Below, piece after piece: positions 11,801-62,177 of a stretch of 64,000 nt of DNA. Under the pieces are notes generated by a model, which did not search any database, was not told where the DNA came from, and saw nothing but the letters and a program-made list of their open reading frames with translations. Numbering within the stretch: the stretch's first letter is position 1; the number at the start of each line of letters is the position of its first letter. This stretch comes from an uncultured Gammaproteobacteria bacterium. Lineage in GTDB: Bacteria; Patescibacteriota; Patescibacteriia; UBA9934. The DNA is taken from positions 386,897 through 450,896 of the forward strand of contig CAYVLY010000001.1 of assembly GCA_964452565.1 (NCBI GenBank). Reading direction: 5' to 3'. Position numbers and translations under genes: made by a program.

Positions 11801-14800
11801 GATGCTCCCCAGATTGTTGATCCATCACAGAATGCCGGTCCATTTTGGAACCCATCACCTGTTCCGTATCCTCCAATAATTATTTGCTCATCGTCAGTTG
11901 TGTCACTGTCAATATCTGAGAACCAAGAACCAGTTTTAAATTCAAGTTCTGCACCAATAACATACCCAGAATCTCCATATGCACGATAATGATAGGTTCT
12001 TGAACCTCGCGGACAAAGATATTCACCAGCAACCTCATCCACACATGTTGTCTCATCATAATCTCTATATCTTCCGGAGCCACATCCTTGATAAGAATCT
12101 AAAGGATCTGAGTCAACGCTTACACCAAGATCTGTTGCTAGAACATCATCCCAGGATCCCCAAACACTTGATGTTAATGATCGAACAAAACTTCCTGATT
12201 CGATCTGTGGGGTTGAACTACTCATATACTCTGCAAGATCTGTAACATCTCCTAGACGATCCATATCGCGCATGAGCTTTGATTTTATGTCAGCACAATC
12301 GTATCCAGTTGCAGTACAGTCTAAGTCTGATTCGCAACTCGTTGTATAGTTTCCAGCTGTTGAGCTATAGCAAAGTGCCATGTCATCTACATTTGTAACA
12401 AGAGACAAGTTCTCAAGCATCATGTCAAAAATATCAACAGCTGTACTGCTTGCACCGTAGTTATAAGAGATGATTGCTATGTTCGGATATAACGATCCAG
12501 TGACATAGTTTGGAACAGCCACATAGGTTGAGCGGCCATCTACCACTGCCTGGAATCCATCAATCGTTGTTTGTGTTGGATTACCTGAGAATCCGTTTGC
12601 GTAATACCATGCCATTGGACTTAGGTACGAGCTATTCATCACAAAACGAACACCAATGGCATCACCTGTTGGGCCATTATCATTAACTACATTAAAGAAA
12701 TATTCTTTCAAAACTTCAGTACTTCCACGCTCTTGAGCCATCACAACGCGCAACTCTGGATAATCATCATCAGTGTCGCCATCTTCACCAGCATCTCGAC
12801 AATAGTATGTTGAGAAATTCATCCATCCACGTCCGACACCAGCAGACACACCTGAGCCTGCATGTAATCCGTCAGCATTATCTTCAAATGGGAAGTAATC
12901 AAGAGCTGGCCATGGATTATCACAAACAACTATCGTAATGTCTTCGGTTCCACTAACTACAGTTGATTCACATGTAGCAGATACATACTCGCAATCAGTA
13001 TCAAGGTCGCAACTCTCACCACTAATCGAACACACTCCTGAAGAACATGTCTCCTGACACTCAGAGTCAGTTGTACAACCGGTTATTGATGCATCAGAGC
13101 TACAGTAGAAAGACTCGCCAGATGTATCTTCTGTAACAATTGCTTTTGTTGCAATGTTTGCTTCACCACTTGATCCTGTGGATGTGTAATCAGCAGTGGC
13201 GGCGCTAACAGAGCCAACAGACTCACTGCTTCTTGTTAGGAATGAACCAATGCCATCGTCATCATCGTCGTCGTCCGAACTCCAGCTTGTCCATTCCCAT
13301 GTATATCCTGAAATTGGCTCAATCGCCTGTGCTGAGCCTGTGTCGTATGAATAAGCTGTTGCAGTAAATGTGTGCTCCTCATCAACCTCGGTGAATGCAT
13401 TCGGGCTATCTTCGTCTCCATCAATGATGTCCACTTCATCAAGTCCGCAAATGCTCTGATATGTCTCAAAGCTTTGTGAAGCATCTCCATCCATTGCAAC
13501 TCCATAACTTGTCAGAACTCCATCCCGATCATCATCACCCAGAGTATCTCCAGTAACATAGATTGTATAACTTGCTTCTGCAGCAAGTGCCTGATCGTGA
13601 TTGAACACCACTTTATAAACGCCATCACCAACTGCACTTTGCGTGTATCCAGTGATTGGCAATATACAGTCTCCACTTGTTTGTGCATGTACGATTGGCG
13701 CAAAGATCATTGTAAATACATTTAATGCTCGCTGCCACCAAGAATCTGACGATCCGCCCAAGGCAATAGTTGAATGAGTACTTGGGCAAGTTCCGTCATC
13801 AGTAGTTGTAATGTCTAATACTATAAATACATTGCCTTCAAAGGTTGATGTTTCCATCTTCATATTGAACAGCCCATAAATCTCAGCATTCAAACATGCG
13901 TTAGAGCCATTCGGGAACAATTCCGGATCAGGTCGCTCCATGCAACACAGTGTAGTTGCAGGACCATAGCCATCATCGCAATCATCATCATCTTCAGCAA
14001 CACATGAAAGATATAGCGAGGTATATGCCGTTAGATCGTCATAGGTAACCTGAACAGTTGCTGTTGCAAGGTTTGTACTCATATCTACCTGCTGTCCAGC
14101 GTCAGTACTGATCAAGGCCAACTGAACAGGATCTGTATATCCATCAGGTCCTGCGCCGTATGAGCTACCTTCGCAAGCGTCCAGCTCCCCATAGCCAGCA
14201 ATTCCATCTCCACAAACTGAGGCTTCAGTGTAATAAATCGATGAGCCTGAAAGCAGACAGTCATCAGAACACCACTCTTCCCCATCACAATCCTCACCGG
14301 CACTTGTACTTGAATGTTGATCTAATATTTCATCGCCACACTCGCCAGAACTTCCAAAGCTTGCGTAATCAGCATCAGCACCTTCACGAATACAGCTTGA
14401 TGAGCACCCGTCACCGTCGGTTGTATTTGAATCATCACAAGTCTCATATGGTTCATCGATTGTTCCATCACCACATTCTGCAGCAACTTGTGTAATCGCT
14501 GTTGTTCCTTCATTAAGACAGATTGAGGAGCATCCATCGCCAGATGAAGCATTTCCATCATCACAGTCCTCTCCTCCTTGATCATCTTCATGTGCGATAT
14601 CGCTATTTCCACATGTTGCTCCAGCTGCCTGAGACCCCTCGTTTAAACATGAAGAAGAACATCCATCACCGTTAGTTGAGTTGTTATCATCGCATTCTTC
14701 CCCGGTATCAAGGTCCCCATCACCACAACAGGAAGAACTATCTGCATCGCAAGTGCTTGCAGCATATGTACAATCCGTATCTAGAGAACACTCAGTTTCA

Positions 14801-17800
14801 GAGATAGAACATGTTCCAATTAACGCCTCTGTATCAGTTATTTCACATACTTCCTGGCAGTCTGTGTCAGCACTACAAGACTCGCCAGTTGATGAGCATG
14901 TGTATACACATGCGTCGGTTCCTTCATATTGGCAAGATGAAGAACATCCATCGCCATCAACTGTATTCCAGTCGTCACAGTCCTCACCCGTCTCAGTGGA
15001 GCCATTTCCGCAGATTCCATAATAAGTCTCTGATCCGCTTGCAGTACAAGCTGATGTACATCCGTCTGGGATATTTGTTTGACCTACATCAAACAAACTA
15101 CTTGCAACTGTAACCCATTCCGCTACATCCTCATCACTAACAATAGGGTCAGTCCATGACCAGTCATAGCCATAACCACTCAATTCCTGACCTGCAACAG
15201 AGCAGCTATCTGGATCTCCATATGCAGTGACCTCGTAATGCTGTGTATCGCCTATTGCCTCAAGTGTCTGATTTTCAGGGGCAAGTGCGATGCTGCTTAC
15301 CAAACAAAGTGCATCATCGTCCTTTGATCCAAAAGTCCAAGAGAAATCATCTCCATAGTTTGTTCTAGTAAGTGCTACGCCACTATTTGATATAGCAGAT
15401 CCTGACACTACAACTCTGTAGAACTCAGATTCCTTCAAGCTCGTACCGTAATCGCTGTCCGCAATAGTCAATGTCACCTCTGAACAACCAACTGATTCCA
15501 CGCTGCTGCAACTAGCTGTAGTTGTTATTTCTGAAACCACCGCACATAGCTCATTTGAGCAGGAATACAATGTTATATAATCAGTTATTGAATCATCCAT
15601 CACCACATTAAATGTAGCGCTAATTGCGCCATTCACGCATGCAGATGAACAATCTGGCTGATAGTCGCTAACATACGGATCTTCAAAATTAACAGTAACT
15701 TCTGCATCACCAGTGGTTCCGCTATCTGATTCTTCTGCTGTCAAAATAGTAATTCCTTCTGCAACACCAACTGCAGATATGCAATAATCTTCTGTCATTT
15801 CCTCACAATCTGTAAGGCCAATATATGAATATGTGTCTACATCCCAATCCCAACCATAACTTGCAGGATTCAAGACCTGACATTCTTGCAATGGCAATGC
15901 ATTGAACTCAGAATCTTCACCCTGCTCTTCAATCGTGGACGAGGTTGGGCTGACCATCACCTCTTCAATCTCACAATCTGCTTCACTTGGACCTGTAGTA
16001 AATGTCCAAGTCACATCCTCCTCAAGAGTTTGGCCAACGCCTGTATCTGAGTACGATGTAAGATCGTCCGTCACCCAAACAAGATATGAGGTGCTGGTTT
16101 TAAACTTCCCATCGTTATAAGAAGAATCTAAAGTCCATGTAAACGATGTTCGCTCAGTACTCGATGAGGCATATACCGACCCGCTTACATCATCGTCATC
16201 AAAATCAACATTGCACCTGCTATCAGAGCACTCAAAAATCTTAATGTTGTCGGTCGAAATAGTATCTTCATCCATGACAGTACTAAAAGACGCTCTAATC
16301 ACTGTATTGGTGCACGACTCTGTTGTATAAATTAGGTTTGGAACTGCACTAACCAAATCGTCAGAACACTCAACAAGTAAAGTTGGTACATCTGGAATGT
16401 CGCCTGTTGAGAAATACCAAGCATAACCTCCAGAAACATCAGCCGCGACCTCCTCTTCAACAGTTCCAACTTCAAAATTCAATTCATTACTTTCTTCTAG
16501 TGCCGACGAAGTAACAGATACTGGCCCAGTCTGGGTACCAGAAGGAACGGTCACCGTTACACTATCATCATCCCAATCCTCTACCGTGCCAAAAACTGAA
16601 CTATAAAATTCTACTGATCCTGCTGTTGACCCCAGCCTTTGACCATAGATAATAATAGTATCGTCAACCTCTGCGATATCTGGATCAATCGCACAAATTC
16701 CAGGAGTGGGTTCATCGTCAGTAACTGTAAAGTCAATATCATCTGAATCAACTCCAGCTTGTGTTGTTATATAAAGGTCGTAATCCCCTGCTTCAACATC
16801 GCTTTCATTAGTAAACTCTTCTGGAACTATGATTGTAATCTCATCATCACTCCAGTAATCATCCTCACAAGCATCTGGGAAATCAACACTACCCTGCGCG
16901 ACATATCCGCTAGTTTGATCTTCAAACCAAACACTTCCAATGGCAGCACCAAAGTTTGTACCTGAAATAGTGACATACTGACCCACGCCACCCTCTTCAG
17001 GATCTATAGAATAAATTGTTGGTATTTCCTCATCGCTATACTCAACTCCAAAGCTTATTTCGTTCGAAGTTACTCCATCAACTGTTACAGACACGTCAAC
17101 AAATTCTCCTGCCGTTAACGACGGCACGGTCACGACCGCAGACGCATCTGACCATGTTGAATAGCTACTTGCTTCAGTTGTATCAAAATAAATTGATGAA
17201 TCGCCCACTGAATCACCGAAGCCGAGCCCTGATAGCGTAACCGCGTCTCCTACCTCAGCTTCATCAGGAGCTATGTTACAAAGATTTGGACGCTCAGTTT
17301 CATTAACATCAAAATCATCAATCAACGTTCCTTCATCATTGTCAGTTGAGTCAGTATATCCAGATGGCGAAACTTCAACAGTAATAGGCCCATCATCAGC
17401 TCCTTCTGGTACTTCTGCAATGATCTGATCAGACCACCACCCCTCACCACAGGTTGGAATGTCAGCCTCTACCGTGCCGCCAGCGCCATCAGAAAAATAG
17501 ACCGAGCCTCTTGTTCCAAACCCAGAACCAGAAATAGTTACATAAGTGCCAACTGCTCCGTTTGAAGGTGAAATGCTCTCGATCTCAGGATATGAAACAC
17601 ATGTGCCATCTTCGCATGTCCCACTTGCACAATCATCGTCCTCCTCACATGAATCGCCATCACATGAGCCACAACTACCACCACAGTCAGTTCCCTCTTC
17701 ATCTTCGTCCTGCGTTCCATTGAAACAATGCGCTGGCAAAATCTTAATTCGAACTGAATCTGTGTCTTCGTTTCCTGCAATATCTGTCACAGTAACCTCA

Positions 17801-18837
17801 AGCGTGTAACGAGTGTCCTCTTCAGTGTCATCTGTATACCAAGTGCTTTCAATGGTTACATCTGATAAGTCAGATCCGCTTGCTGATACAGTGTCAAACC
17901 AATCATCACCAGCATAAAAATCCGCGCTCGATATCTCACTGTCATCTGTTGCTGATACTTGAACTAAACTTGAACTGTCTGTTGAGATATTCTCGCCGCT
18001 CTCAGGATAAGTAACACTCACATCAGGATCTTCGGTGTCAACTAACTCACCTGTGGTGAAAGTTGACGTACAGTCTGAAACCGCACAATCAAGCGAGGTT
18101 CCGGTCGAACTTTCAATATCGCCGTCTACAGTAACGGTGTACTGGGTATTTTCATCAAAACAATATCTATCTTCGTTTGGCTCAGGGCATGCTTCAGATG
18201 GCATGAACTCAATGCTGTTTCCTGAAATCTCCAAAGTTCCACTTACCTCATCGCCTGTTTCAGTATTTGTAATTGTGATATTCCCTTCAACTGTATCTTC
18301 ATCCAATGTTCTACTGAACGTGACCTCAGCTACGACATTACGAATCGACACTTCGCCTTCTGGTGAATAACCCGCAACTGCAAACGAAGTTACTGAACCT
18401 CCACCATAAGAACCACCCGCCCCACTATCACTACTTGTATAATCGCCATCACCGCCTGTGGCTTCTAATAAGGCATTTAGCACAAACGTCGTAATCGACC
18501 ACGATAATAATATTATCGCAAGCCCAATAAACCCGTTGAGAAGGATCTTCTTTGCTTTATCTACCTTGTCCGCCTCACCTCTTGCCGTCATCCACATGAA
18601 ACCACCGTATAGCACTATTACAACCGCAATAACGCCCAGAACAGTCAGGAATGTCCTTATAATCTTCGCAACAACGATTCTAAGATCTTCGTCCTGCAGA
18701 CCCGATACATCACCCACTTCCTCGAGTTCGTCGACTTGAGCATGGGTTACTTGCATTGGCACTAAGACACCTCCTGTTATTGTAAACAGGACTGCAAGCG
18801 AGCTTATGAATAGAGTTAAACGTTTGAAAAACAGCAT
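8863..18837 (-). CDS. giant (3324 aa) cell-surface adhesin-like protein with N-terminal signal peptide plus two-TM TrbC/VirB2-like pilin anchor module and a multi-domain ectodomain
   Basis: Single uninterrupted 9975-nt ORF. N-terminus: signal peptide, then VIAVVIVLYGGFMWMTARGEADKVDKAKKILLNGFIGLAIILLSW (two hydrophobic helices). Ectodomain: Big_5-like Ig domains; IPT/TIG-like ISPSNGAVGTYVTISGSGFG; many Cys-rich repeats of the form CGDGxxDxGEECDDGNxxxGDGCSSxC (DUF4215/Myxococcus-type cysteine-rich repeat); a TSP3 repeat DTDGDGIPDDEDNCPDDSNPSQLDTDGDGVGDECE; a vWA domain with MIDAS motif VIDLSKSMS. Confidence 0.85.
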   Translation of the reverse strand: MLFFKRLTLFISSLAVLFTITGGVLVPMQVTHAQVDELEEVGDVSGLQDEDLRIVVAKIIRTFLTVLGVIAVVIVLYGGFMWMTARGEADKVDKAKKILLNGFIGLAIILLSWSITTFVLNALLEATGGDGDYTSSDSGAGGSYGGGSVTSFAVAGYSPEGEVSIRNVVAEVTFSRTLDEDTVEGNITITNTETGDEVSGTLEISGNSIEFMPSEACPEPNEDRYCFDENTQYTVTVDGDIESSTGTSLDCAVSDCTSTFTTGELVDTEDPDVSVTYPESGENISTDSSSLVQVSATDDSEISSADFYAGDDWFDTVSASGSDLSDVTIESTWYTDDTEEDTRYTLEVTVTDIAGNEDTDSVRIKILPAHCFNGTQDEDEEGTDCGGSCGSCDGDSCEEDDDCASGTCEDGTCVSYPEIESISPSNGAVGTYVTISGSGFGTRGSVYFSDGAGGTVEADIPTCGEGWWSDQIIAEVPEGADDGPITVEVSPSGYTDSTDNDEGTLIDDFDVNETERPNLCNIAPDEAEVGDAVTLSGLGFGDSVGDSSIYFDTTEASSYSTWSDASAVVTVPSLTAGEFVDVSVTVDGVTSNEISFGVEYSDEEIPTIYSIDPEEGGVGQYVTISGTNFGAAIGSVWFEDQTSGYVAQGSVDFPDACEDDYWSDDEITIIVPEEFTNESDVEAGDYDLYITTQAGVDSDDIDFTVTDDEPTPGICAIDPDIAEVDDTIIIYGQRLGSTAGSVEFYSSVFGTVEDWDDDSVTVTVPSGTQTGPVSVTSSALEESNELNFEVGTVEEEVAADVSGGYAWYFSTGDIPDVPTLLVECSDDLVSAVPNLIYTTESCTNTVIRASFSTVMDEDTISTDNIKIFECSDSRCNVDFDDDDVSGSVYASSSTERTSFTWTLDSSYNDGKFKTSTSYLVWVTDDLTSYSDTGVGQTLEEDVTWTFTTGPSEADCEIEEVMVSPTSSTIEEQGEDSEFNALPLQECQVLNPASYGWDWDVDTYSYIGLTDCEEMTEDYCISAVGVAEGITILTAEESDSGTTGDAEVTVNFEDPYVSDYQPDCSSACVNGAISATFNVVMDDSITDYITLYSCSNELCAVVSEITTTASCSSVESVGCSEVTLTIADSDYGTSLKESEFYRVVVSGSAISNSGVALTRTNYGDDFSWTFGSKDDDALCLVSSIALAPENQTLEAIGDTQHYEVTAYGDPDSCSVAGQELSGYGYDWSWTDPIVSDEDVAEWVTVASSLFDVGQTNIPDGCTSACTASGSETYYGICGNGSTETGEDCDDWNTVDGDGCSSSCQYEGTDACVYTCSSTGESCSADTDCQEVCEITDTEALIGTCSISETECSLDTDCTYAASTCDADSSSCCGDGDLDTGEECDDNNSTNGDGCSSSCLNEGSQAAGATCGNSDIAHEDDQGGEDCDDGNASSGDGCSSICLNEGTTAITQVAAECGDGTIDEPYETCDDSNTTDGDGCSSSCIREGADADYASFGSSGECGDEILDQHSSTSAGEDCDGEEWCSDDCLLSGSSIYYTEASVCGDGIAGYGELDACEGSSYGAGPDGYTDPVQLALISTDAGQQVDMSTNLATATVQVTYDDLTAYTSLYLSCVAEDDDDCDDGYGPATTLCCMERPDPELFPNGSNACLNAEIYGLFNMKMETSTFEGNVFIVLDITTTDDGTCPSTHSTIALGGSSDSWWQRALNVFTMIFAPIVHAQTSGDCILPITGYTQSAVGDGVYKVVFNHDQALAAEASYTIYVTGDTLGDDDRDGVLTSYGVAMDGDASQSFETYQSICGLDEVDIIDGDEDSPNAFTEVDEEHTFTATAYSYDTGSAQAIEPISGYTWEWTSWSSDDDDDDDGIGSFLTRSSESVGSVSAATADYTSTGSSGEANIATKAIVTEDTSGESFYCSSDASITGCTTDSECQETCSSGVCSISGESCDLDTDCEYVSATCESTVVSGTEDITIVVCDNPWPALDYFPFEDNADGLHAGSGVSAGVGRGWMNFSTYYCRDAGEDGDTDDDYPELRVVMAQERGSTEVLKEYFFNVVNDNGPTGDAIGVRFVMNSSYLSPMAWYYANGFSGNPTQTTIDGFQAVVDGRSTYVAVPNYVTGSLYPNIAIISYNYGASSTAVDIFDMMLENLSLVTNVDDMALCYSSTAGNYTTSCESDLDCTATGYDCADIKSKLMRDMDRLGDVTDLAEYMSSSTPQIESGSFVRSLTSSVWGSWDDVLATDLGVSVDSDPLDSYQGCGSGRYRDYDETTCVDEVAGEYLCPRGSRTYHYRAYGDSGYVIGAELEFKTGSWFSDIDSDTTDDEQIIIGGYGTGDGFQNGPAFCDGSTIWGASDICGDGIVGSGELCEVGDTTSSTTACDSDGDGTNDGYYVDECDSTCAAYSTTTTCDATSCGNGVTETGEDCDDGSLNGSYGFCGADCLNTSRTYCGDGTLAGGEACDCGSSGTASGAAYGGGSCTYLNGVYDASASNTCAWDCSGAGPYCGDGDADDEEDCDGTTDTYSGMLCTSGNSTDEDKCDEDSDCIMIVAAGSGSSSTGQCGETDTTDETKDTANECPYTTVCVDGDADKMGEPCDTDGDCDSSGVADGICSSIEYQTTRTRTCDDSTCLWAYDWADIDCIAPGSCGDGVVDDGEECDDGNDDSTDSCTIECTENICGDGYVYDGEESCDEGSANGTICTASYGSTCAYCNDNCVNVTSSGSFCGDGEINGDEVCDADDVSYYYYDSTNGVYDYCDVADEGGTVEVDEDGEIILDGSTGTTYTCTMVGVCNGGSDNGDHCMADSDCEYSDCALPVCNDSCANMCPFTYTAQSIALETNELGAKRTYTTDISPFDSSGLVISTGNSSTLYIPECTVSDGLTMTINDDDREYPDVEIMFVIDLSKSMSSDLGDSTRIEVLESAVGDAITALHEAYDGVSADMGIGWAYIGGLHQTYTAPVDTDGDGIPDDEDNCPDDSNPSQLDTDGDGVGDECEEEVPEPIECDCGELVLDEADCEDICGDDDDDGGIDDDGLGGTDPAETEGATGYDPSIKDTKLATLSFWDQAIDMFKPLVAWASYSSSGEGKFLMLEAASSAGVSTTESDTQSSITSGLVVDSTTGTPIYESIEDAALGFSGYADNEYMIIFTDGNIYNTDYESLYFDHIDTEDTDGDDVMDTAEYMRGVSNILDDIKDAGVEVFSAVLSDSDCEIAQMQRWSSMECTDNSDSCGAMTTEGNHDCEVPDNGITYAYSATTSDELVAMYEAIVDAILNVTISLTFDGETESTTIEAGLSRSIELPTTFSCDGSNEQTVTLRTAYNGEGTVELSDIYLNMCAQ

Positions 18838-21647: not shown

Positions 21648-24600
21648 TCATGACAGTGCGATATCTTCTCCTGGATTCAGACCTTCTGAACAGGTTCCTG
21701 TTGATGTAGAGGAAGATGAGATTGAGTCTGCACCACCTTCAAGAGAGCCAATCTCGGGAGAAGATGAGGTTGTTGGAGTACTTCCTGAACTTGCTGTTGT
21801 AAAACTTATGTCGTCTAGTGTTGTTTCATTACCAAAGTCATCTATGGCCCAAATCTTTGTGTAATATGTGGTTTGCTTGCTAAGGCCTGTGATGGTTGTG
21901 GTTGCGGTTCCTACGGTTGTTAGATCTGTGTCATCTGAATCATCCCATTCAGTAGCACTTGTTCTACCTTGAACATCTGACTGGCTAGTATCAATCCAGA
22001 TTTCATAATGATTAAAGTTTGAGTCTGTGGCTGCAGTCCAGGTAAACGTTGCGGTTGTGGTAGTCGCACTAGAACGTGCGAATGAAGCTAAAGACGCTGG
22101 ATCTACATTGTCTACAGTTATACTTGTTTTAGATGCAGTAGATCCGGCTGCAGTTCCATCATATGGAGTTATTCTAACCTGGGCAGTAGAAAGATCGGCT
22201 GCTGCCTCATCTGTAGCAGATTCCCATACAACAGAGACTGTATTAGCTCCAGATGAACTTGTTATATATCCACTGGCATTACCTACTTGGTAAGTATCAT
22301 CGTTTTCTACTGCAGGATCTCCATAAGTAGCAGATGCCTCTGCTCCTGTCTCAGATACTGTAGCTTTAGTCCATCCTCCGCCAATGTCGTATTCAACAAG
22401 GGCCTCTAGAGTATCGTCATCATCTGCATCATCCATGATGAATGTAATAGTCACATCTCCTGTTCCGTCTGTACCTTGAGTTGCTGTAACTGTTGAGACT
22501 GTTGGGGCAACATTGAAACCCCAGTTGGTATTATTCCCTCCATTTGTTGAACGTGACGGGCTTACAGCATGTGTAATTGTATTACCACCACTCGCATCTG
22601 AATCTGTGACATTAACATAATCTACAGAACTTGTACCTGAAACATTTAAAAGCCAGGTTGTAGCAGGACTAGAACTAGTAATTGTAATCAGGGCTGCATC
22701 ACCACCTGTTAATGTTAGGGTCCCAGATACTGTTGTTGTGGTGCTTGCTGTAAATACAATTGCCTTACTTGCTGTTGTAGAGGTTAAATTATTGAAAGAT
22801 GTAGTTCCAGAAATCGTTGTTGTCTTTGACACGTCGTCCAATGTCACGGTTCCTGATCTGGGCGTAAATGTCCCGGAGTTAGCCCAATCACCTCCCACTG
22901 TAATTGCATAGTTATCACCATCTGAAGTGTCTAGCGTTCCAGCCGTAATTGTGAGTGTATTATTTACATCTATAGCCTCATCTAGTGTATAAGTGCTACC
23001 AGATGAGTTAATTGTTAAATTATTGTATGGAGATAATGCTGAAAGTAATGATGTAGACTCTGTGGTTGCTGCATTATATGTAATTGTTCCACCTGAGTTA
23101 GTCCATGTGTTTGCAGTTTTAACAATATCAGAAGTCGTATCATTAGATTCAATCTGAAGTTCACCACTTGAAATTGTTACAGTATCTCCTCCTGCATCTC
23201 CAAAGGTATTTATATTTGTTCCCGTCTTCATCGTTCCACCACTAATAACTGTATTACCTGCAATGGTCATAGTGTAGTCATTAACATCAAAGGTTCCTGC
23301 AGATACTGTTAGATTTCCCACTATTGATTCATTTGCACCCAACTGAGCTATTGCACCTCCAGTTGTTGCAATTTCCAGGCTTTGATATGCCCAGTCCTGC
23401 ATAGCAACCGTTCCTGTTGATGAAACATATTTTACTGTAGAGCCTGAGTTCAAAGTTGGAACAGTATCATCTAAAGTCAAGGTTTCTGTTCCTCTCCATG
23501 CAAATGTTCCGCCATCTTCAACTACAAAATCACCAGACCAACCACTAACTGTCAAATCATAACCATTTATATTTAATTCCCCTTCTACAACAGTGAGGTC
23601 TTGCTCACTGTCATTCACAGTTAAATCAGATGCTAAATTAACAGTCGGTGTTGAAGTGGTGGTTCCTATTTTTATATGTCCGTCATATAAAGCTTCTGCT
23701 CCAGTTAAATCAAAAGTTTGAGCACTAGAGCCAGCAAGAGTCAATACAGAGTCATTCTTATCATAACTGTACCAATTTGATTCTATTGTTACATCTCCTT
23801 GAGCTTCAATTGTGCCCAATATCGTCCTTCCATCACTCATTAATAAATCACCTTCAACATACAGGGTATCCCCAGAGCCTAAATAAACATAATTAGAACC
23901 TCCACCACATACAACGCCCGTACCACTACAATCAAAGGTAACATCATTGAAAACACCAGAAGTAGCAATTGACGCCTTATCAAAATTCCAAGTGTCAGAA
24001 CCATTACCATCCCACATGAAAGTACCACTGTTATGATTAGAAACACCTCCAGCAGTATGGGTCCAACTGCCTGCAATAAATGTTGTACCAGTTGTTGCAT
24101 TAAAAGTTCCATCTGTAATAATCACATCATTTACATCTAATGTTCCTGTATTTCCATTTAATGTACCTCCAGATATATTTAAATCATCTGCCACCTCCAA
24201 TTCATATGCGCCAACATTCAAACTTCCATCAGTGAGTGTCAAATCTTGTCCTGAACTATTCATTATCAAGTCAGATGCTAAATTAACAGTTGGTGCTGCG
24301 GAACCAGTCCCTATTGTTACATGTGCGTTAAATAAAGCTTCCCCTCCAGTTAAATCAAAAATTTGTGTACCAGAGCTAGAAAAAACTAAAGGAGTGTCAC
24401 TGGTATTATTGCTATACCAATTTGACTCTATTGTTACATTTCCCTGGGCCTCAATTGTACCTGTTATTACTCTTCCATCACTCATTAATAAATCACCTTC
24501 AACATACAGGGTATCCCCAGAGCCTAAATAAACATAATTAGAACCTCCACCACATACAACGCCCGTACCACTACAATCAAAGGTAACATCATTGAAAACA

Positions 24601-25793
24601 CCAGAAGTAGCAATTGACGCCTTATCAAAATTCCAAGTGTCAGAACCATTACCATCCCACATGAAAGTACCACTGTTATGATTAGAAACACCTCCAGCAG
24701 TATGGGTCCAACTGCCTGCAATAAATGTTGTACCAGTTGTTGCATTAAAAGTTCCATCTGTAATAATCACATCATTTACATCTAATGTTCCTGTATTTCC
24801 ATTTAATGTACCTCCAGATATATTTAAATCATCTGCCACCTCCAATTCATATGCGCCAACATTCAAACTTCCATTAGTAATAGTTAAATCTAGCCCACCA
24901 TAATTCAAAATACAATCCGAAACTAAATTAACAGTTGGTGCATTAGTTACAGTTCCAATAGTTGTATGTGAATCCCATTCATCTGTATATCCTGTTAAAT
25001 CAAAAGTTTGTGTCCCTGTTCCAGTAAATGTCAGAGCGGCATCAGTAAGATTAAAGGCATCCCAAGGTCCTACAGTGACATTACCCTGCACCTCTATACC
25101 ACCACCGTTAAACCACCTTCCATCATAAAAAGTCGCATTACCGTTTATATATAGGGTGTCTCCTGAAAGATTAACATAGGAGCCGGAGTCACTGGTGCTA
25201 TCATAAGTAAAATTATTAAACACTCCAGAGGTAGGAATCCCGGCTTTATCAAAATTAAAGGTTTGTCTATAACCAGTATGTTTGACTGTTCCTGAACCTG
25301 CATTCCACACTCCTCCAGCTGTATGTGTCCAGTTTCCAGTAAAAGTGAGCGTCCCTGACGTACCATTAAATGTACCACCTGAAATTGTAACACCTCCGCT
25401 TATTGTAATATCTTGACTTGCTCCAGTGAATGTCCCATCTGCTTGATCATAATGTGATGAACCAATTGTTAAACTTCTAGCCTGTGTAATGGTCCCATCA
25501 TAACCACTATTTATATCAATTCCAGCAACAGACCCTGCAAATGAAGCGTCAATTGTTGAATCATTGTCAGAAGTATTATCAAAAGTAGCAACATCACTTG
25601 CTCCTGGTGGTGAATCGGTAGACCAGTTCAAGCCAGTTGACCAGTTTGTATCAACTCCTCCGCCACCATCCCAAGTGACTACTGCTGCATGAGCTTGATT
25701 GGCACTCCAAAAGGCTGCAAGTAGCACAAATAATGCAATAATAGAAATATTGCAAATCAGCAAGCCAAGCGATCTTGTCTTAATATATTTCAT
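21648..25793 (-). CDS. large secreted/anchored protein with parallel beta-helix-like ~215-aa tandem repeats and C-terminal FN3-like domains
   Basis: Likely start MKYIKTRSLGLLICNISIIALFVLLAAF (signal/anchor) at 25793; the ORF-track start at 25856 lies inside the terminator repeat. Repeats NISGGTLNGNTGTLDVNDVIITDGTFNATTGTTF occur; two copies are nucleotide-identical over ~400 nt. FN3-like TTATFTWTAATDSNFNHYEIWI. Stop TGA at 21648..21650. Confidence 0.8.
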   Translation of the reverse strand: MKYIKTRSLGLLICNISIIALFVLLAAFWSANQAHAAVVTWDGGGGVDTNWSTGLNWSTDSPPGASDVATFDNTSDNDSTIDASFAGSVAGIDINSGYDGTITQARSLTIGSSHYDQADGTFTGASQDITISGGVTISGGTFNGTSGTLTFTGNWTHTAGGVWNAGSGTVKHTGYRQTFNFDKAGIPTSGVFNNFTYDSTSDSGSYVNLSGDTLYINGNATFYDGRWFNGGGIEVQGNVTVGPWDAFNLTDAALTFTGTGTQTFDLTGYTDEWDSHTTIGTVTNAPTVNLVSDCILNYGGLDLTITNGSLNVGAYELEVADDLNISGGTLNGNTGTLDVNDVIITDGTFNATTGTTFIAGSWTHTAGGVSNHNSGTFMWDGNGSDTWNFDKASIATSGVFNDVTFDCSGTGVVCGGGSNYVYLGSGDTLYVEGDLLMSDGRVITGTIEAQGNVTIESNWYSNNTSDTPLVFSSSGTQIFDLTGGEALFNAHVTIGTGSAAPTVNLASDLIMNSSGQDLTLTDGSLNVGAYELEVADDLNISGGTLNGNTGTLDVNDVIITDGTFNATTGTTFIAGSWTHTAGGVSNHNSGTFMWDGNGSDTWNFDKASIATSGVFNDVTFDCSGTGVVCGGGSNYVYLGSGDTLYVEGDLLMSDGRTILGTIEAQGDVTIESNWYSYDKNDSVLTLAGSSAQTFDLTGAEALYDGHIKIGTTTSTPTVNLASDLTVNDSEQDLTVVEGELNINGYDLTVSGWSGDFVVEDGGTFAWRGTETLTLDDTVPTLNSGSTVKYVSSTGTVAMQDWAYQSLEIATTGGAIAQLGANESIVGNLTVSAGTFDVNDYTMTIAGNTVISGGTMKTGTNINTFGDAGGDTVTISSGELQIESNDTTSDIVKTANTWTNSGGTITYNAATTESTSLLSALSPYNNLTINSSGSTYTLDEAIDVNNTLTITAGTLDTSDGDNYAITVGGDWANSGTFTPRSGTVTLDDVSKTTTISGTTSFNNLTSTTASKAIVFTASTTTTVSGTLTLTGGDAALITITSSSPATTWLLNVSGTSSVDYVNVTDSDASGGNTITHAVSPSRSTNGGNNTNWGFNVAPTVSTVTATQGTDGTGDVTITFIMDDADDDDTLEALVEYDIGGGWTKATVSETGAEASATYGDPAVENDDTYQVGNASGYITSSSGANTVSVVWESATDEAAADLSTAQVRITPYDGTAAGSTASKTSITVDNVDPASLASFARSSATTTTATFTWTAATDSNFNHYEIWIDTSQSDVQGRTSATEWDDSDDTDLTTVGTATTTITGLSKQTTYYTKIWAIDDFGNETTLDDISFTTASSGSTPTTSSSPEIGSLEGGADSISSSSTSTGTCSEGLNPGEDIALS
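23836..24876 (-). repeat. near-perfect intragenic tandem duplication (period 645 nt; about 396 nt identical: 23836..24231 = 24481..24876)
   Basis: The identical 77-aa reverse-frame ORFs 23879..24112 and 24524..24757 in the ORF track show the duplication. The identical nucleotide strings were read directly. Confidence 0.85.
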
Positions 25794-25843
25794 GATCTTA
25801 TTGTTTCTATATTGTATCAAGCTACTATTTATAAAAGAAACAT

Positions 25844-25883
25844 ATTGTGGACACAAAAAGCCCCCGATTTCTTAGGGGCTTTT
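25844..25883 (-). terminator. 40-nt repeated double-hairpin terminator module (copy 2), downstream of yqeY
   Basis: Identical to 20803..20842. Confidence 0.6.
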
Positions 25884-26864: not shown

Positions 26865-26950
26865 CAAACAATTTCGTATAGTTGTCGATCGACAACTATA
26901 CAGAGTAAATAAAAAACCACCACACGGCGGTTCTTTTAATACACGCCAAG

Positions 26951-27237
26951 GTCCCCAGCCAATTTTTCCCAGCTAATCTTAAACTCAGGCCTGTCACGAG
27001 CACGTCCAGGTTTATCCTCGGGCAGGAGAACGGAATTGCATTTTGCGTGACATTTATCCATATAAACAAATGGAGCTCAAAATGCCCGTTCGTATGTACC
27101 GAGGTATACCTGGACAGCGCAGTGAGGCCAAGCAGTTTCTTTTCCCCATTTCTTTGCTGCTTCAAAGAAATGGGGCCAGGGGTTAGGGGCAGGATGCCCC
27201 ATAACAAAACAGGGCCTTGCGGCCTTGTTTTATTTTT
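26951..27237 (+). ncRNA. copy 1 of an about 240-nt structured repeat family (candidate sRNA or MITE) with 3' rho-independent terminator
   Basis: Shares >85% identity with 46210..46489 and a core with 61947..62167. Internal hairpins CCCCATTTCTTTG-N7-CAAAGAAATGGGG and GGGGCA-GGA-TGCCCC. Terminator ACAGGGCC-TTGC-GGCCTTGT plus TTTTATTTTT. Confidence 0.5.
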
Positions 27238-34541: not shown

Positions 34542-34550
34542 TACAGAACA

Positions 34551-34642
34551 CAGATCCCCTCCAGCTCCCCCCTCGAAAGGGGGAGGGTCTAGATTCGAAA
34601 TTAGACCCCTCCTTGCGAAGGAGGGGGTAGGGGAGGTCTGTG
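34551..34642. repeat. dual-hairpin REP/RPE-like element copy A (der-pth spacer)
   Basis: CTCCCCCCTCGAAAGGGGGAG hairpin, then GGTCTAGATTCGAAATTAGACC, then CCCCTCCTTGCGAAGGAGGGG hairpin. Family members at 53535, 54409, 56494 and 61069. Confidence 0.7.
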
Positions 34643-34663
34643 AATCTCAATTCCAACAACTCT

Positions 34664-35988: not shown

Positions 35989-36034
35989 TCTTTGTTCATT
36001 CAACCAGGCCCAGGGGCGCAAACCAGAGAACAAC

Positions 36035-36556
36035 ATGCCTGACAGAGTGGAAAAACTCGCCAGTCTAATGGGAATGAAAGGAACCGTAGTTGATGGGAAG
36101 GAAATCTTCGCCTGTCGGCTCGGTTCAGAAGGCGACACCCTCGTCATCGCGTACTACGACGACGCGCGGCACATCTGGAAAATCCGGTTCTTGCCGGGAA
36201 TCCCCATCGTACCTGCGCAAGCGCTGGTGCACGGTGGCTACAGGTGGAACGAGCGAGGCTATGGATATAAGTTCTACAACTGGCCCAAAACCTCAATCCA
36301 GATCGAAGATGAACCCCACGAAGTTGGTCAACGCGAATTTATGTGTTCGATTGGTGCTTTCACAGCTGAACGAACCGTGGATGCCTTCGTGGCGCTCCAA
36401 CTCGTCTTCCGCGTAAGCTTCCTTGCGCCATACGATCGCCCCCTGACAGACACACAGGTCAGAGAAGCAATGCATCTAATGACGATCGTGGCCAATGACT
36501 GTCATTTTGTCGCCCCACCTGGGTATTACCCTGGCGACGAAGACCTCGAAAGCTAA
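36035..36556 (+). CDS. hypothetical protein in ~60% GC island (cassette 2), 173 aa from first ATG downstream of the promoter
   Basis: In-frame ATG at 36035 (M26 of the track ORF 35960..36556); GC-rich codon usage unlike the host genes. Confidence 0.5.
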   Translation: MPDRVEKLASLMGMKGTVVDGKEIFACRLGSEGDTLVIAYYDDARHIWKIRFLPGIPIVPAQALVHGGYRWNERGYGYKFYNWPKTSIQIEDEPHEVGQREFMCSIGAFTAERTVDAFVALQLVFRVSFLAPYDRPLTDTQVREAMHLMTIVANDCHFVAPPGYYPGDEDLES

Positions 36557-36576
36557 ACCGTACCTCACCCCCACCC

Positions 36577-36614
36577 CGGACCCCCGCGTCCTTGCGTGGG
36601 GGTTCTGCTTTTTT
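36577..36614 (+). terminator. GC-hairpin terminator of cassette 2 (shared module TCACCCCCACCCC...CGTGGGGGTTCTGCTTTTTT)
   Basis: ACCCCCGCG-TCCTTG-CGTGGGGGT hairpin (one G.U pair) plus TCTGCTTTTTT. About 80% identical to 37757..37810. Confidence 0.65.
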
Positions 36615-36682
36615 GAGCCAATACCGGCTCTTTTTTGACCAAACTACCAACGTTACACGTTGGTAGTTTTTGCATAATTATA

Positions 36683-36711
36683 TTGACAATTTGGCTAATT
36701 TATGCTATATT
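36683..36711 (+). promoter_or_regulatory. near-consensus sigma70 promoter of high-GC cassette 3 (TTGACA-N17-TATATT)
   Basis: TTGACA 36683..36688, 17-nt spacer ATTTGGCTAATTTATGC, TATATT 36706..36711. Similar to the cassette 2 promoter (TTGACAAT...TTTATGCTAWAT). Confidence 0.55.
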
Positions 36712-36778
36712 TTTTTGTTTCTAGCGCAACTCCGCGCAGAACATATCGTGCATCCCGCACGTGAAGAGGGAGACAAGA

Positions 36779-37747
36779 ATGACTCACAGGCAAATCAAGG
36801 TGTGGCGCCAGCCCACCTCTGTGAGCGTCCAGCTCGAAGCCACCCGCAGCGCCGAGCACGAATTGAGACAGCTCATCATAGCCATACAGCAAGCGCTGGG
36901 GGTCCAGGACTGGCACAACTTCGGACGCATGCTCCAGACCTGCTGCAACGTCTTCATGCCAGAACGCCACACCCCGATGGGCTTCGGCGTACGCAGACGT
37001 TCACCAGCCCAGATCCTCAAGCGCAAGATGGAGTGGGTGGACATCGAAGAGTTCAAGGCCTTCGGCCTCAAGATCGAAGACGAAACCTTCACAGCCACCC
37101 CCCGCGAACCCGTGACCATCACGATCGGACGCACCTTCACTGGGGGTCACGAGTTCAACAGCGATGGACACAGCATCGTCTTCACGGTCGCAAGCGACTC
37201 CGAGGTCGAGATCATCGCTGAGGTCCAGGACAGAGTCGGGAGCGTCGATAGAGGCCGCCACATGGGCAGCTACCACTTGCAGCTTGGCGAAACCACCTAC
37301 ACATCTGTGCTCTACGTCCAGGCCTGGACTCAGAGACACTGGGCCTTCAGCAAGGGCAGCAAGGAACGCCTGGGAGACCGCCTGCAGGAACCGCCCTACG
37401 ACTGCTTCCGCCGAGATGCTCCGATCTATCAGGTCGAACCGCTCGAAGACGAGGAGCTCGTGGTCTACGAGAGCTCTGGGGCCCACAATGTAGGTCTGGA
37501 AGTGCCCTTCTCGCGCACGGCACCGAGACACCCGGATCGTCAGGTCTTCGCCTCGGTCGGACCGTTCTCGTTGGCACTGCGCAAGGGCGAACGCCGCGGA
37601 CGCAGCCCAGCTCGCGATCGCATCGTGGTCTTCCGCGATGACAAACTGCCCATCGTCCCACCCGAAGTTGACGATGAGGAATGCGACGATAGCGGCTGGG
37701 ACTGCGACGAATTCGACTTCGCTGACCGGTACGACGCAGAGTACTAG
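36779..37747 (+). CDS. hypothetical protein in ~60% GC island (cassette 3), 322 aa
   Basis: RBS GAGGGAGA 6 nt before the ATG at 36779; GC-rich; antisense ORFs in this stretch are treated as GC artefacts. Confidence 0.55.
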   Translation: MTHRQIKVWRQPTSVSVQLEATRSAEHELRQLIIAIQQALGVQDWHNFGRMLQTCCNVFMPERHTPMGFGVRRRSPAQILKRKMEWVDIEEFKAFGLKIEDETFTATPREPVTITIGRTFTGGHEFNSDGHSIVFTVASDSEVEIIAEVQDRVGSVDRGRHMGSYHLQLGETTYTSVLYVQAWTQRHWAFSKGSKERLGDRLQEPPYDCFRRDAPIYQVEPLEDEELVVYESSGAHNVGLEVPFSRTAPRHPDRQVFASVGPFSLALRKGERRGRSPARDRIVVFRDDKLPIVPPEVDDEECDDSGWDCDEFDFADRYDAEY

Positions 37748-37756
37748 CCCCACCAC

Positions 37757-37810
37757 TCACCCCCACCCAAGGACCCCCTCGTCCTCGGCGTGGGGGTTCT
37801 GCTTTTTTGT
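37757..37810 (+). terminator. GC-hairpin terminator of cassette 3 (second copy of shared module)
   Basis: TCACCCCCACCCAAGGACCCCCTCGTCCTCGGCGTGGGGGTTCTGCTTTTTTG. Confidence 0.65.
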
Positions 37811-37817
37811 TCAAACC

Positions 37818-37878
37818 TGGGGCCCACCACGAGCCTGCCTGCCAGCAGGCAGGGGTTTCAGGGGGATGAAGTGCCCCC
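37818..37878 (+). repeat. internally deleted fragment of the about 240-nt structured repeat family (retains both termini)
   Basis: GGGCCCACCACGAGC (5' end as in copy 3), then palindrome CCTGCCTGCCAGCAGGCAGG, then GGGGGATGAAGTGCCCCC (3' hairpin as in copy 3, GGGGGACGGAGTGCCCCC). Confidence 0.5.
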
Positions 37879-37954
37879 AATGAAACACGTTTCACACAAC
37901 AACCCTTGACACACCTAACAAAATCAGATTTTTCGTGCATGATAAAATATAAGT

Positions 37955-39055
37955 ATGACTCAAGGAGATGAGAGCTTGGCGTATTTGATGGCCTTAAATG
38001 AATTTCCACAGTTTGGTCCGCGCAGGATGCAGCGGTTGTTTAAGTATTTTGATTCAGCCCAGTCAATCTTCGAATCAGGCACATCAGATCTTCAAAGTGC
38101 AGGGATCTCTGAGAATATTGCAAAAGAGTTCATTGAATTCCGTAAATCAATCAATCCGCAGGAACTACTTGAGCTTATTCGATCGAATCAGGTCTCGACC
38201 TTATCAATCTTCGACCCTAACTACCCCACCCTACTCAAAGAGATATTTGATCCTCCGACATTGCTATATGTAAAAGGTAAGCTTCCAGATCTTACTGATC
38301 GAAAACTTCTTGGAATCGTTGGTTCGCGCAAAGTAAGTCCATATGGCATGCAGGCTGCAAAAGACCTAACTCGAAACATAGCAAGGGCTGGAATCATTAC
38401 TGTAAGCGGGCTTGCGTATGGAGTTGATCAAATCGTACATCGATCAACAATCGACGCAGGCGGATCAACGATCGCAGTTCTAGGCTTTGGCATTCTGCAT
38501 GAATCAACGCCGCGTGAACAAAAGATGCAAAGATACATAGTTGAGAATGGCGGATGTTTAATCAGTGAATTCCCGCTGATGATGCATGGTGCCAAACAAA
38601 ACTTCCCAGTCCGCAACCGAATCATCTCAGGGCTAAGCCACGGGACCCTTGTGGTTGAGGCGGCGATAAAATCCGGCTCACTAATAACAGCCCGATCGGC
38701 AACTGATCAAAACCGTGAGGTTTTTGCTGTTCCAGGTCCGATTAACTCTCCAGCTTCAGAAGGTACAAATAATCTAATCAAAAATGGCGCACATACGGTC
38801 ACTTCGATCGAAGATATACTTGAACCACTTGAAATCGACCGAATCCGATCAAACTCAATCAAAAAAACCACCCCAAAGGGCGACACTCCGCAGGAAGATA
38901 AAATCCTGTCGATCTTATCAAAACAACCAGTCCACATCGACGACATCACCCGCAAATCCAACCTTCCTCCCCACACCGTCGCAAGCGTAATTTCGATGCT
39001 TGAATTGAAAGGACTTGCCCAAAACGTCGGAGCGCAATACTATACGTACGTATGA
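37955..39055 (+). CDS. dprA: DNA processing protein DprA (Smf)
   Basis: Rossmann-like core GIVGSRKVSPYGMQAAKDLTRNIARAGIITVSGLAYGVDQIVH; 366 aa with C-terminal winged-helix-like tail. Confidence 0.85.
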   Translation: MTQGDESLAYLMALNEFPQFGPRRMQRLFKYFDSAQSIFESGTSDLQSAGISENIAKEFIEFRKSINPQELLELIRSNQVSTLSIFDPNYPTLLKEIFDPPTLLYVKGKLPDLTDRKLLGIVGSRKVSPYGMQAAKDLTRNIARAGIITVSGLAYGVDQIVHRSTIDAGGSTIAVLGFGILHESTPREQKMQRYIVENGGCLISEFPLMMHGAKQNFPVRNRIISGLSHGTLVVEAAIKSGSLITARSATDQNREVFAVPGPINSPASEGTNNLIKNGAHTVTSIEDILEPLEIDRIRSNSIKKTTPKGDTPQEDKILSILSKQPVHIDDITRKSNLPPHTVASVISMLELKGLAQNVGAQYYTYV

Positions 39056-46209: not shown

Positions 46210-46489
46210 GTCCCCAGCCAACCTTCTAACCTCGGGCCTGTCACGAGCACGTTCATGCTCATCCCCTGGCAGGAAGACGGAATAGCATTTTGAGTCCAAT
46301 TTATCCATATATACAAATTGGATCGCCAAAATGCCCGTCTGTATGCCTGGGGTATGCATGGACAGCGCAGTGAGGCCAAGCAGTTTCTTTTCCCCATTTC
46401 TTTGCTGCTACAAAGAAATGGGGCCAAGGGTTAGGGGTTAGGGGCAGGATGCCCCAATAACAAAAGACCGGCGATCTGCCGGTCTTTTG
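46210..46489 (+). ncRNA. copy 2 of the about 240-nt structured repeat family with 3' terminator
   Basis: Near-identical to copy 1, including the GTCCCCAGCC start. Hairpins CCCCATTTCTTTG-N7-CAAAGAAATGGGG and TCCAATTT...AAATTGGA. Terminator GACCGGC-GATCT-GCCGGTC plus TTTT. Confidence 0.5.
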
Positions 46490-46493: not shown

Positions 46494-46521
46494 GGATCCC
46501 CGCCTTTGCGGGGATGACAAG
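46494..46521. repeat. solo GGATCCCCGC-CTTT-GCGGGGATGACAA hairpin (same motif as the MITE-like family X ends), downstream of parB
   Basis: Perfect 8-bp stem; motif GGATyCC..GGrATGACAA shared with 59337..59440 and 62792..62879. Confidence 0.5.
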
Positions 46522-46528
46522 TTTATAG

Positions 46529-54375: not shown

Positions 54376-54408
54376 TGTATCACACAGTGCTACTTCTATA
54401 AATATACA

Positions 54409-54446
54409 GGCAACCCCCTCTATCTCCCCCTTGGGAAGGGGGAGGA
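54409..54446. repeat. REP-like element copy C (single hairpin CTCCCCCTT-GGG-AAGGGGGAG with GGCAACCCCCTCTAT leader)
   Basis: Identical leader and hairpin to copy D at 56494. Confidence 0.7.
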
Positions 54447-54447
54447 C

Positions 54448-56493: not shown

Positions 56494-56583
56494 GGCAACC
56501 CCCTCTATCTCCCCCTTGGGAAGGGGGAGGACCTTGATCTAGATCCCCCCTCCTTCCCAAGGAGGGGCTGGGGGTGGTTGCCT
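56494..56583. repeat. dual-hairpin REP/RPE-like element copy D in the scpA-scpB spacer, abutting the scpA stop
   Basis: GGCAACC...CTCCCCCTTGGGAAGGGGGAG...GATCTAGATC...CCCCTCCTTCCCAAGGAGGGG...GGTGGTTGCC, an outer inverted repeat enclosing the two hairpins. Confidence 0.7.
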
Positions 56584-61946: not shown

Positions 61947-62167
61947 GGGCCACCACGAGCACGTTCAGGTTTATCCTCGGGCAGGAGAACGGAATTGCAT
62001 TTTGATGTCCAATTTCTCCATAGATACAAATTGGATCTCCAAAATGCCCGTTCGTATGCCTGAGGTATACCTGGACGAGCGCAGTATGGCCACGCCCTTT
62101 CTTTTCCATATTTCTTTGGGCGAGCAAAGAAATATGGCCTGGGGGCTACGGGGGACGGAGTGCCCCC
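61947..62167 (+). ncRNA. copy 3 of the about 240-nt structured repeat family (more diverged, with compensatory substitutions)
   Basis: Hairpin CCATATTTCTTTG-N6-CAAAGAAATATGG compares with CCCCATTTCTTTG...CAAAGAAATGGGG in copies 1 and 2; both stem sides changed. TCCAATTT...AAATTGGA; 3' hairpin GGGGGACGGAGTGCCCCC. Confidence 0.5.
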
Positions 62168-62177
62168 GCTTGATTAA

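Follow-up and report, generated by a model that had tools for sequence, protein, structure and literature searches.

A structured interspersed repeat, probably of MITE/REP kind, in a candidate phyla radiation genome, and its exactly conserved end module in other phyla

Genomes of the candidate phyla radiation (CPR, Patescibacteria) are very small, and little mobile DNA is generally expected in them. In one of them, an Uhrbacteria-like genome, a single stretch of 64,000 nucleotides (709,517-bp contig CAYVLY010000001.1 of assembly GCA_964452565.1, positions 386,897 to 450,896; hereafter the window, to which all results for the source genome refer) contains small structured repeats of at least four families, even within a ribosomal-protein operon, between adk and map. 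One of these, a unit of ~230 nt present in three full copies and one mini copy, raises the question of what kind of element it represents: a family of small RNA (sRNA) genes, a derivative of a known insertion sequence (IS), a site bound by protein, or a repeat that is mobilised by machinery encoded elsewhere. With modest confidence, we favour a non-autonomous, structure-dependent interspersed repeat of the kind formed by transposable elements of the miniature inverted-repeat type (MITEs) and repetitive extragenic palindromes (REPs).

MITEs that fold into hairpins over their whole length include ERIC/IRU (127 bp) of enterobacteria, Correia/NEMIS of Neisseria, RUP, BOX and SPRITE of the pneumococcus and QMITE of Coxiella. 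To our knowledge, small bacterial repeats are normally limited to one lineage. What sets the present element apart is a 40-nt module that is conserved exactly in several phyla; its retention, from a CPR genome of 43% GC up to phage contigs and hosts of 71% GC, points to a partner protein or mechanism that is itself conserved and so far unnamed. The same unit is carried by Ralstonia solanacearum GMI1000, which is genetically tractable and for which much public RNA-seq is available, so that the questions whether the element works as RNA or DNA, and which enzyme acts on it, are directly testable there. Open-access literature, searched by sequence and by topic, yielded no description of the repeat.

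Copies of the repeat and the fold they retain

The three full copies lie on the + strand, differ by single-base insertions and deletions, and share units of 218-227 nt (copy 1, 26988-27205; copy 2, 46235-46461; copy 3, 61948-62168; Table 1). In pairwise comparison the trimmed units are 85, 80 and 78% identical, and the 100-nt flanks of the copies are 43-54% identical, which is background; all three copies and the mini copy are intergenic. A unit of ~230 nt has been copied to unrelated intergenic sites. An earlier reading of the sequence alone had placed three same-strand copies, all intergenic, in this DNA, and both claims agree with the coordinates, identities and unrelated flanks given here. 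A gapped pattern of 23 bases taken from the element matches the window at copies 1-3 only, where chance would produce no match, and a filter-free covariance-model search at full sensitivity detected no additional copy in the 64 kb. The mean spacing of about one copy per 20 kb had been overlooked, as had several other families of small hairpin repeats in this genome. Copies 1 and 2 begin with extra 5' nucleotides (~37 and ~25, respectively) that start with the box GTCCCCAGCC, the counterpart of which in a variant from a relative (L027) is GAGTCCCCCGGC. Within the rod, the long imperfect hairpin that makes up most of the unit, the internal loops CACGAGCACGT and AGCGCAGT are unchanged in all three copies.

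The mini copy is located between a terminator and the dprA promoter region. It had been described as a 61-nt fragment (37818-37878) that keeps both termini of the element. This holds well for the 3' end, because the mini copy and copy 3 have in common a 27-nt pattern that occurs at these two places only in the window, with none expected by chance; the 5' end is a weaker match, GCCCACCACGAGC, and the full-length covariance model gives the mini copy a score that is not significant (6.7 bits).

The RNAalifold consensus of the three copies comprises 73 pairs and consists of a rod of ~146 alignment columns with six stacked helices, followed by a 13-bp hairpin and then by a GGGGCA/TGCCCC hairpin. 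Standard pairs occupy 96.3% of the pair cells in the three copies. Eight pairs change on both sides, a number reached by none of 500 shuffles, and control structures slid by 1-3 columns contain no double change at all. Folded singly, the copies reach -107 to -112 kcal/mol vs about -73 to -77 kcal/mol for dinucleotide shuffles, an advantage of 30-35 kcal/mol per copy (z from -7.2 to -8.3). Secondary structure, rather than sequence, is what the copies retain. All hairpins that had been named earlier as conserved despite sequence change were found again, the compensatory change from CCCC/GGGG to CCAT/ATGG is real (pairs 166-193 and 167-192), and the proposal of a fold backed by covariation is upheld by the eight double changes.

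Table 1. Components, sites and flanking terminators of the repeat copies in the window
Feature	Position	Strand	Description
Copy 1, site			left, hypothetical gene (+); right, rpsU (-); 13 nt after the T tract of the upstream terminator
Flank of copy 1, terminator	26911..26937	+	terminator of the upstream + strand gene; ends TTCTTTT, 13 nt before copy 1; outside the repeat
Copy 1, 5' box	26951..26960	+	GTCCCCAGCC; common to copy 2; imperfect inverted match of 3' GGCCAGGGG
Copy 1, rod	26988..27129	+	142-nt imperfect hairpin, closing GGCCT..CAC/GTG.AGGCC
Copy 1, end module	27136..27175	+	direct 8-mer TTTCTTTT, then 13-bp hairpin CCCCA-TTTCTTTG-CTGCTT-CAAAGAAA-TGGGG
Copy 1, G-run and terminal hairpin	27179..27205	+	GTTA-GGGGCA-GGA-TGCCCC-A-TAAC; end of the unit
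Flank of copy 1, two-way terminator	27206..27236	.	serves rpsU on the - strand; stem unrelated to that after copy 2; outside the repeat
Mini copy, site			left, terminator of GC-rich open reading frame; right, dprA; directly after the terminator T tract
Mini copy	37818..37889	+	5' GGGGCCCACCACGAGC; own 8-bp hairpin replacing rod and module; 3' GGGGTTTCA-GGGGGATGAAGTGCCCCC-AA-TGAAAC
Copy 2, site			left, relA (+); right, parB (-); 14 nt after the T tract of the upstream terminator
Copy 2, whole element	46210..46461	+	5' box 46210-46219, rod 46235-46377, module 46384-46423; GGGTTAG run duplicated; terminal hairpin 46441-46455
Flank of copy 2, hairpin	46462..46489	.	AAAAGACCGGC..GCCGGTCTTTTG; terminator of parB on the - strand; outside the repeat
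Copy 3, site			left, map (-); right, adk (-); spacer filled
Copy 3, whole unit	61947..62168	+	rod 61948-62091, module 62098-62137, terminal hairpin 62150-62167; no 5' box; occupies the adk-map spacer, antisense to both genes

An invariant end module within and beyond the CPR

The rod is followed by an invariant 3' module of ~40 nt, TTTCTTT(T/G)-N5-TTTCTTTG-N6-CAAAGAAA-N5', which contains three 8-mers, two direct and one inverted, with a fixed 6-nt spacer, and which is invariant from 36 to 71% GC. The 3' hairpin named in the sequence-only reading is part of this triple common across phyla, a relation that had escaped notice. Among 18 distinct modules the five outer pairs occur in 12 different complementary combinations, 99.6% of the cells are paired, and the outer pairs contain 30 double-change cells, again with 0/500 shuffles reaching this number; the inner 8 bp of these modules are fixed partly through how the sequences were chosen.

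When viral contigs were scanned with the hairpin core plus G-run, two loci were matched end to end by the full covariance model, L048 (66% GC) at 41.5 bits and L042 at 28.6 bits, and an exact 23-base pattern was found in 10 viral contigs of 36-71% GC, where chance expects about none. BLAST of one of these relatives against PLSDB returned 519-549 places in 151 Burkholderiales plasmid records, carried by Ralstonia megaplasmids (a single record has as many as 13 places, as does one replicon of Ralstonia sp. RRA.1), Burkholderia, Caballeronia, Paraburkholderia and Variovorax; none of these places lies under an annotated coding sequence among the records listed. Closely related R. solanacearum strains differ in number, with 2 vs 4 copies per megaplasmid. 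Searches of E. coli produced nothing and those of cultured phages almost nothing, and BLAST of copy 2 against phages and plasmids found nothing relevant. Most relatives keep the order of the CPR unit: the rod, 100-150 nt long in these relatives, precedes the direct 8-mer, after which come the 13-bp and GC hairpins. L042 and GMI1000 have in common a 226-nt unit of 86% identity with unrelated flanks, similar in size to the 218-227 nt of the CPR copies. Besides single units, inverted pairs with the modules at their outer ends are present in GMI1000, Variovorax, Caballeronia and L055, and in the first three of these the loop hexamer is the same at both ends of the pair. One such pair, of 647 nt, lies between cob genes in GMI1000 and is missing from Ralstonia strain T95; the junction is not clean and does not resolve a target duplication. 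The rod tips of the proteobacterial units are C(GNA)G triloops (GCGAAGC, GCCGCAGGC, GCGTAGC), a class of exceptionally stable DNA mini-hairpins.

Several further features of the carriers were recorded. In seven viral contigs (L042, L045, L048, L050, L051, L053 and L054) the module lies ~0.2-1.2 kb from the contig end, with the GC-hairpin side facing it. In L042 and L051, a Mu-type transposase and an S24 repressor are encoded at a distance of 2-3 kb from the module, on the inner side. That the module is the end of a Mu-like phage was considered and rejected, because the unit of L042 is no more than a homologue of the one on the GMI1000 megaplasmid; other contigs place the module among structural genes, between those for head, neck or tail. 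Type II hammerhead ribozymes occur several kb from the module in L042 (3881-3947, - strand, 71.9 bits) and L048 (2966-3033, - strand, 42 bits). In L052 (3369-3480), a viral contig of 36% GC, iteron-like tandem repeats of ~22 nt, ATAGAGAATTTTAGATAACTCC, directly follow the module. In the B. cepacia plasmid pBC25416 (L058, 3885-4158) the unit occupies the aceF-lpdA spacer of a pyruvate dehydrogenase operon; an antisense orientation to the operon is common to this unit, copy 3 (adk-map) and the variant found upstream of adk in L027.

Sites in relatives, mobility and competing explanations

Whether the element is a fixed gene or an insertion can be judged from the orthologous sites of related genomes. 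The adk-map junction has the same gene order and an empty spacer of 3 nt in L017, L023-L026 and L041, and in L020, L027 and L039 it is occupied by 360, 150 and 118 nt, respectively, of unrelated small hairpin repeats. The parB-relA spacer of L017, 24 nt long, is empty; the site upstream of dprA contains no insert in L035 and two different palindromes in L030. At the rpsU site of L035 the contig ends 105 nt past the gene and shows only a GGGTTAGAGGGTTAC motif. One relative, L016, the Adk of which is 84% identical, carries the same element at adk-map, with 27/28 bases identical before the contig breaks inside it, next to a differing spacer. Short-read contigs end inside the element, including the Logan contig of the source strain, which ends within copy 1. 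A variant upstream of adk in GCA_018644925.1 (L027-L029, L036) has the same 5' box and 3' domain, a different middle part, and a hairpin stem longer by one whole base pair. Filled and empty states, as expected of MITEs, are thus documented at adk-map, parB-relA and the dprA-upstream site, and also between Ralstonia GMI1000 and T95. This pattern across relatives indicates an inserted element, mobile or at least dispensable, and not an ancient locus-fixed RNA gene; the mobility suggested by the sequence-only reading is accordingly backed by empty orthologous sites and by the contig breaks within the element.

The secY-adk interval of relatives is a hot spot of insertion (L016, 2451-4453; L027, 7129-9284; L037, 734-2119). 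Its cargo includes Eco47II-type and Bsp6I-type restriction-modification systems with methylases and a gene for a 461-aa reverse transcriptase (RVT_1).

Comparison with catalogued RNAs and with coding sequences excluded a number of identities. An Rfam scan had been proposed earlier, and no known family matches: with Rfam 15 at gathering thresholds the window contains 3 tRNAs only, so that 6S and RsmY/CsrB are not matched, and at E <= 10 copy 1 scores highest with mir-202 (19 bits) and RsmY (18 bits, threshold 57). HEARO, IS605-orfB-I/II, Intron_gpII and group-II-D1D4 have no match in either search. In the loci of eleven relatives, Rfam detected hammerhead II ribozymes only, located elsewhere than the element, and at E <= 1 nothing was found at the element in L045, L051 and L053. 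A CsrA sponge, suggested by the CAGGAUG loop and the faint RsmY match, was dropped because the GGA loop is not kept (it is UGAA in the mini copy and L027) and the RsmY score is far under the threshold. A bridge RNA of the IS110 type was rejected as well, the internal loops of the rod being just 2-3 nt and too small for guide loops. Decayed coding sequence was discarded on the grounds that Pfam recognises none of the overlapping open reading frames (ORFs) and that indels of 1 nt separate the copies.

The terminators that had been assigned to copies 1 and 2 as their own lie outside the repeat, because their stems differ and serve the opposite-strand genes, the convergent rpsU and parB. The ATAACAAAA found after both copies is the complement of the T tracts of these two terminators, and neither copy 3 nor the mini copy is followed by one. 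About 45 ORFs of the window were scanned without finding a transposase, tnpA, TnpB, IscB or reverse transcriptase; they represent housekeeping functions (ftsZ/ftsA, hisS, lepB, der, dprA, topA, relA, parAB, ppdK, aspS, scpAB, map, adk). The proposed search for a nearby tnpB, iscB or transposase was therefore negative for the window ORFs tested, and the suggestion of an IS200/605 remnant or omega-RNA found no support there or in Rfam.

Among known systems, the element appears by analogy most like the whole-length-hairpin MITEs (ERIC, Correia, RUP, QMITE) and the REP/BIME repeats in how it would function. The general features of bacterial MITEs that served as the basis of comparison are those of PMC10969869. 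Like MITEs, the repeat is 100-300 bp long, below the 600-bp limit, non-coding, intergenic and multi-copy, with three copies and one mini copy in 64 kb; its transcripts or single strands would form long stable stem-loops, other small repeats lie close to it, and strains differ in whether they carry it. Unlike them, the CPR copies show neither clear terminal inverted repeats nor a target duplication and have no known cognate IS, and the end module is exactly conserved across the CPR, Betaproteobacteria and viral contigs, whereas known families are lineage-specific. REPs, including bacterial interspersed mosaic elements (BIMEs), which are associated with RAYT (Y1) transposases, are likewise structure-defined extragenic palindromes with covarying stems, often located after terminators and present as several families per genome; however, REPs measure 20-40 nt and have a conserved GTAG-type head, in contrast to ~230 nt and three different hairpins here, and the 64 kb showed no gene for a RAYT/Y1 transposase. 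Bacterial class C group II introns likewise prefer sites immediately past intrinsic terminators, in the orientation of the terminator, and copies 1 and 2, the mini copy, L042 and L045 are placed in this way, but such introns comprise at least 700 nt vs ~230 nt, and the present element has no domain V/VI, no Intron_gpII or D1-D4 match and no reverse transcriptase. The element lacks the defining features tested for IS200/IS605, group II introns, REPs and all Rfam families.

If the repeat is of MITE/REP kind, the 8-mer triple would be what a recombinase, transposase or nuclease, encoded elsewhere and acting in trans, recognises, and the hairpins would form in a single strand, of DNA or RNA, during mobilisation. 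Copies would land or survive mainly just past intrinsic terminators and in operon spacers, where they are presumably harmless, and effects on neighbouring genes, such as altered mRNA ends or antisense RNA, would be secondary. Two modes of movement are conceivable. A single-strand mechanism would agree with the hairpins and GNA triloops, with the absence of a visible target duplication, with sites next to terminators and with all four window copies being on the same strand; a DDE-type end would agree with the presence of several 8-mers in direct and inverted orientation, with the pairing of inverted units and with Mu-type transposases at 2-3 kb in two contigs.

Several observations weigh against this interpretation. 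Compensatory changes are expected of a functional RNA too, and the persistence of copy 3 and its L016 orthologue through at least 16% Adk divergence also fits a retained function. Fold energies of the whole unit are similar on both strands (the + strand is better in 7/12) and do not single out the folding strand. No cognate transposase was found among the window ORFs scanned or beside any copy or relative, and the ends of copies 1-3 and of the mini copy show no target-site duplication, the available empty sites being too diverged for base-level junctions. The terminal inverted repeats of the CPR copies, GTCCCCAGCC and GGCCAGGGG, are ~10 nt long, imperfect and missing in copy 3. Scans of genome and metagenome contigs with CACGAGCACGT-N95-125-AGCGCAGTNNGGCC, a pattern that was too strict, gave 1 + 8 matches, all GC-rich chance matches.

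That the copies form a family of paralogous structured sRNAs, transcribed from the + strand, acting in trans or antisense and spread by duplication, is in our judgement rather unlikely. In such a family the rod and hairpins would be a functional fold, in keeping with the strong covariation and the very low fold energies, and the invariant UUUCUUUG/CAAAGAAA may be a protein- or RNA-binding site. G-U wobbles in the conserved helices lie mostly on the + strand (8 vs 2 in the RNAalifold structure), and module pair 11-38 is U-G in 6/18 sequences and A-C in none, but both strands fold about equally well, and strand assignment through G-U counts is suggestive in the conserved helices, not decisive across whole units. 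The terminators after copies 1 and 2 could be used on the + strand, yet they differ between the copies, belong to the convergent genes and have no equivalent at copy 3 or the mini copy. At the 5' side no sigma-70-like promoter was recognised upstream of any copy, with a consensus from which CPR promoters may deviate, and copies 1 and 2 start 13-14 nt past the terminator of another gene. The orthologue of copy 3 kept in L016 beside a changed spacer would suit an sRNA gene, whereas the empty loci of relatives with the same gene order would not; the GGA loop motifs and their RsmY-like match recall known sRNAs, but fail by score and by loop conservation as described above. Of the new sRNA proposed earlier, the covarying fold outside any Rfam family stands, and a sigma-70-like promoter and a conserved terminator are missing.

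Derivation from IS200/IS605, as a palindrome-associated element or a stand-alone omega- or guide RNA for a TnpB or IscB encoded elsewhere, is very unlikely. Such elements, which may move as single-stranded DNA via a Y1/HUH transposase, are similarly hairpin-rich and strand-biased, lack inverted termini and have a long structured non-coding part, and the CPR copies agree with them in their hairpin-rich ends, at which neither clear terminal inverted repeats nor a target duplication are visible, in the single strand occupied by all four window copies, in the adjoining hairpins (terminators) and, in proteobacterial relatives, in the C(GNA)G rod tips. They differ, however, in that HEARO and IS605-orfB are not matched even at E <= 10, that no tnpA, tnpB, iscB or other nuclease or transposase gene was found among the window ORFs tested or beside any relative, and that the inverted pairs of Burkholderiales, in which each outer end carries the module, do not fit; the pentamers that precede the 5' ends in copies 1 and 2 and the L027 variant (CCAAG, ACTAA and CCTGA) reveal no conserved 4-5-nt target motif and, as a weak point, the + strand is by GC skew not the expected lagging-strand template. 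A site read in double-stranded DNA is highly improbable too, with the module as a 13-N6-13 palindrome plus a third, direct 8-mer bound by a recombinase or regulator; the same judgement covers a cis-acting mRNA element, in which case the unit would be retained in operon spacers because it stabilises mRNA or marks where it is processed. The FRT site has 13-bp inverted arms, a short fixed spacer and a third, direct copy of the arm core, and the module resembles FRT/loxP-type sites of tyrosine recombinases in this layout only; the outer 5 bp of the arms vary among family members, and no recombinase gene is linked. The two direct and one inverted 8-mers with a fixed 6-bp spacer, invariant over 36-71% GC, and the identical loop hexamers of the inverted pairs in GMI1000, Caballeronia and Variovorax would suit a duplex site, but a protein site on duplex DNA does not explain a 140-nt rod held by compensatory change, and the N5 arms covary but are not matched by the N5 that precedes the direct 8-mer. 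For an mRNA element speaks the common orientation of three independent operon-spacer copies relative to their operons (adk-map, L027 upstream of adk, aceF-lpdA); most copies, however, lie past terminators and outside mRNAs, and the gene contexts are unrelated.

Beyond the MITE/REP interpretation, the module and rod could, though we consider this quite unlikely, be the working part of an undescribed system of mobilisation or nucleic-acid recognition that spans phyla. Its agent may be a recombinase or nuclease that reads the folded single strand, or the element may be an RNA that guides or primes its own spread. If such a system exists, the copies in the CPR, Burkholderiales and phages would be substrates of one conserved machinery and not lineage-specific junk.

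Neighbouring repeats and other features of the window

The other small repeats of the window are hairpins of different types, some of which adjoin the element or occupy its sites in relatives. A second family, CTCCCCCTT-NNN-AAGGGGGAG and CCCCTCCTT..AAGGAGGGG, often arranged as tandem or inverted pairs, is found at 34550-34653, 53533-53607, 54405-54453, 56494-56594 and 61074-61158, and hairpins of the same type fill the adk-map spacer in L020 (1490-1790). The third family, GTCATCCC-stem-loop-GGGATCCATC, has covarying stems and lies at 46495-46522, directly after copy 2, and at 59354-59388 and 62823-62857, with the same type in the adk-map spacer of L039 (730-810). Palindromes centred on GTCGATCGAC occur just before copy 1 (26875-26902), and two of the same type at the dprA-upstream site of L030 (2540-2740).

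Just upstream of the mini copy, the region 36000-38000 forms a GC-rich island (56.5% vs ~43%) with a 328-aa ORF (36761-37747) and overlapping ORFs, none with a Pfam match; it may be foreign DNA. Perfect tandem repeats at 44180-44348 (21 nt x3.4 and 18 nt x4.1) lie inside a 613-aa ORF without Pfam match (42795-44636). Two giant ORFs of 3324 aa (8863-18837) and 1402 aa (21648-25856), with internal repeats, including 645-nt repeats at 23613-24557, probably encode surface proteins.

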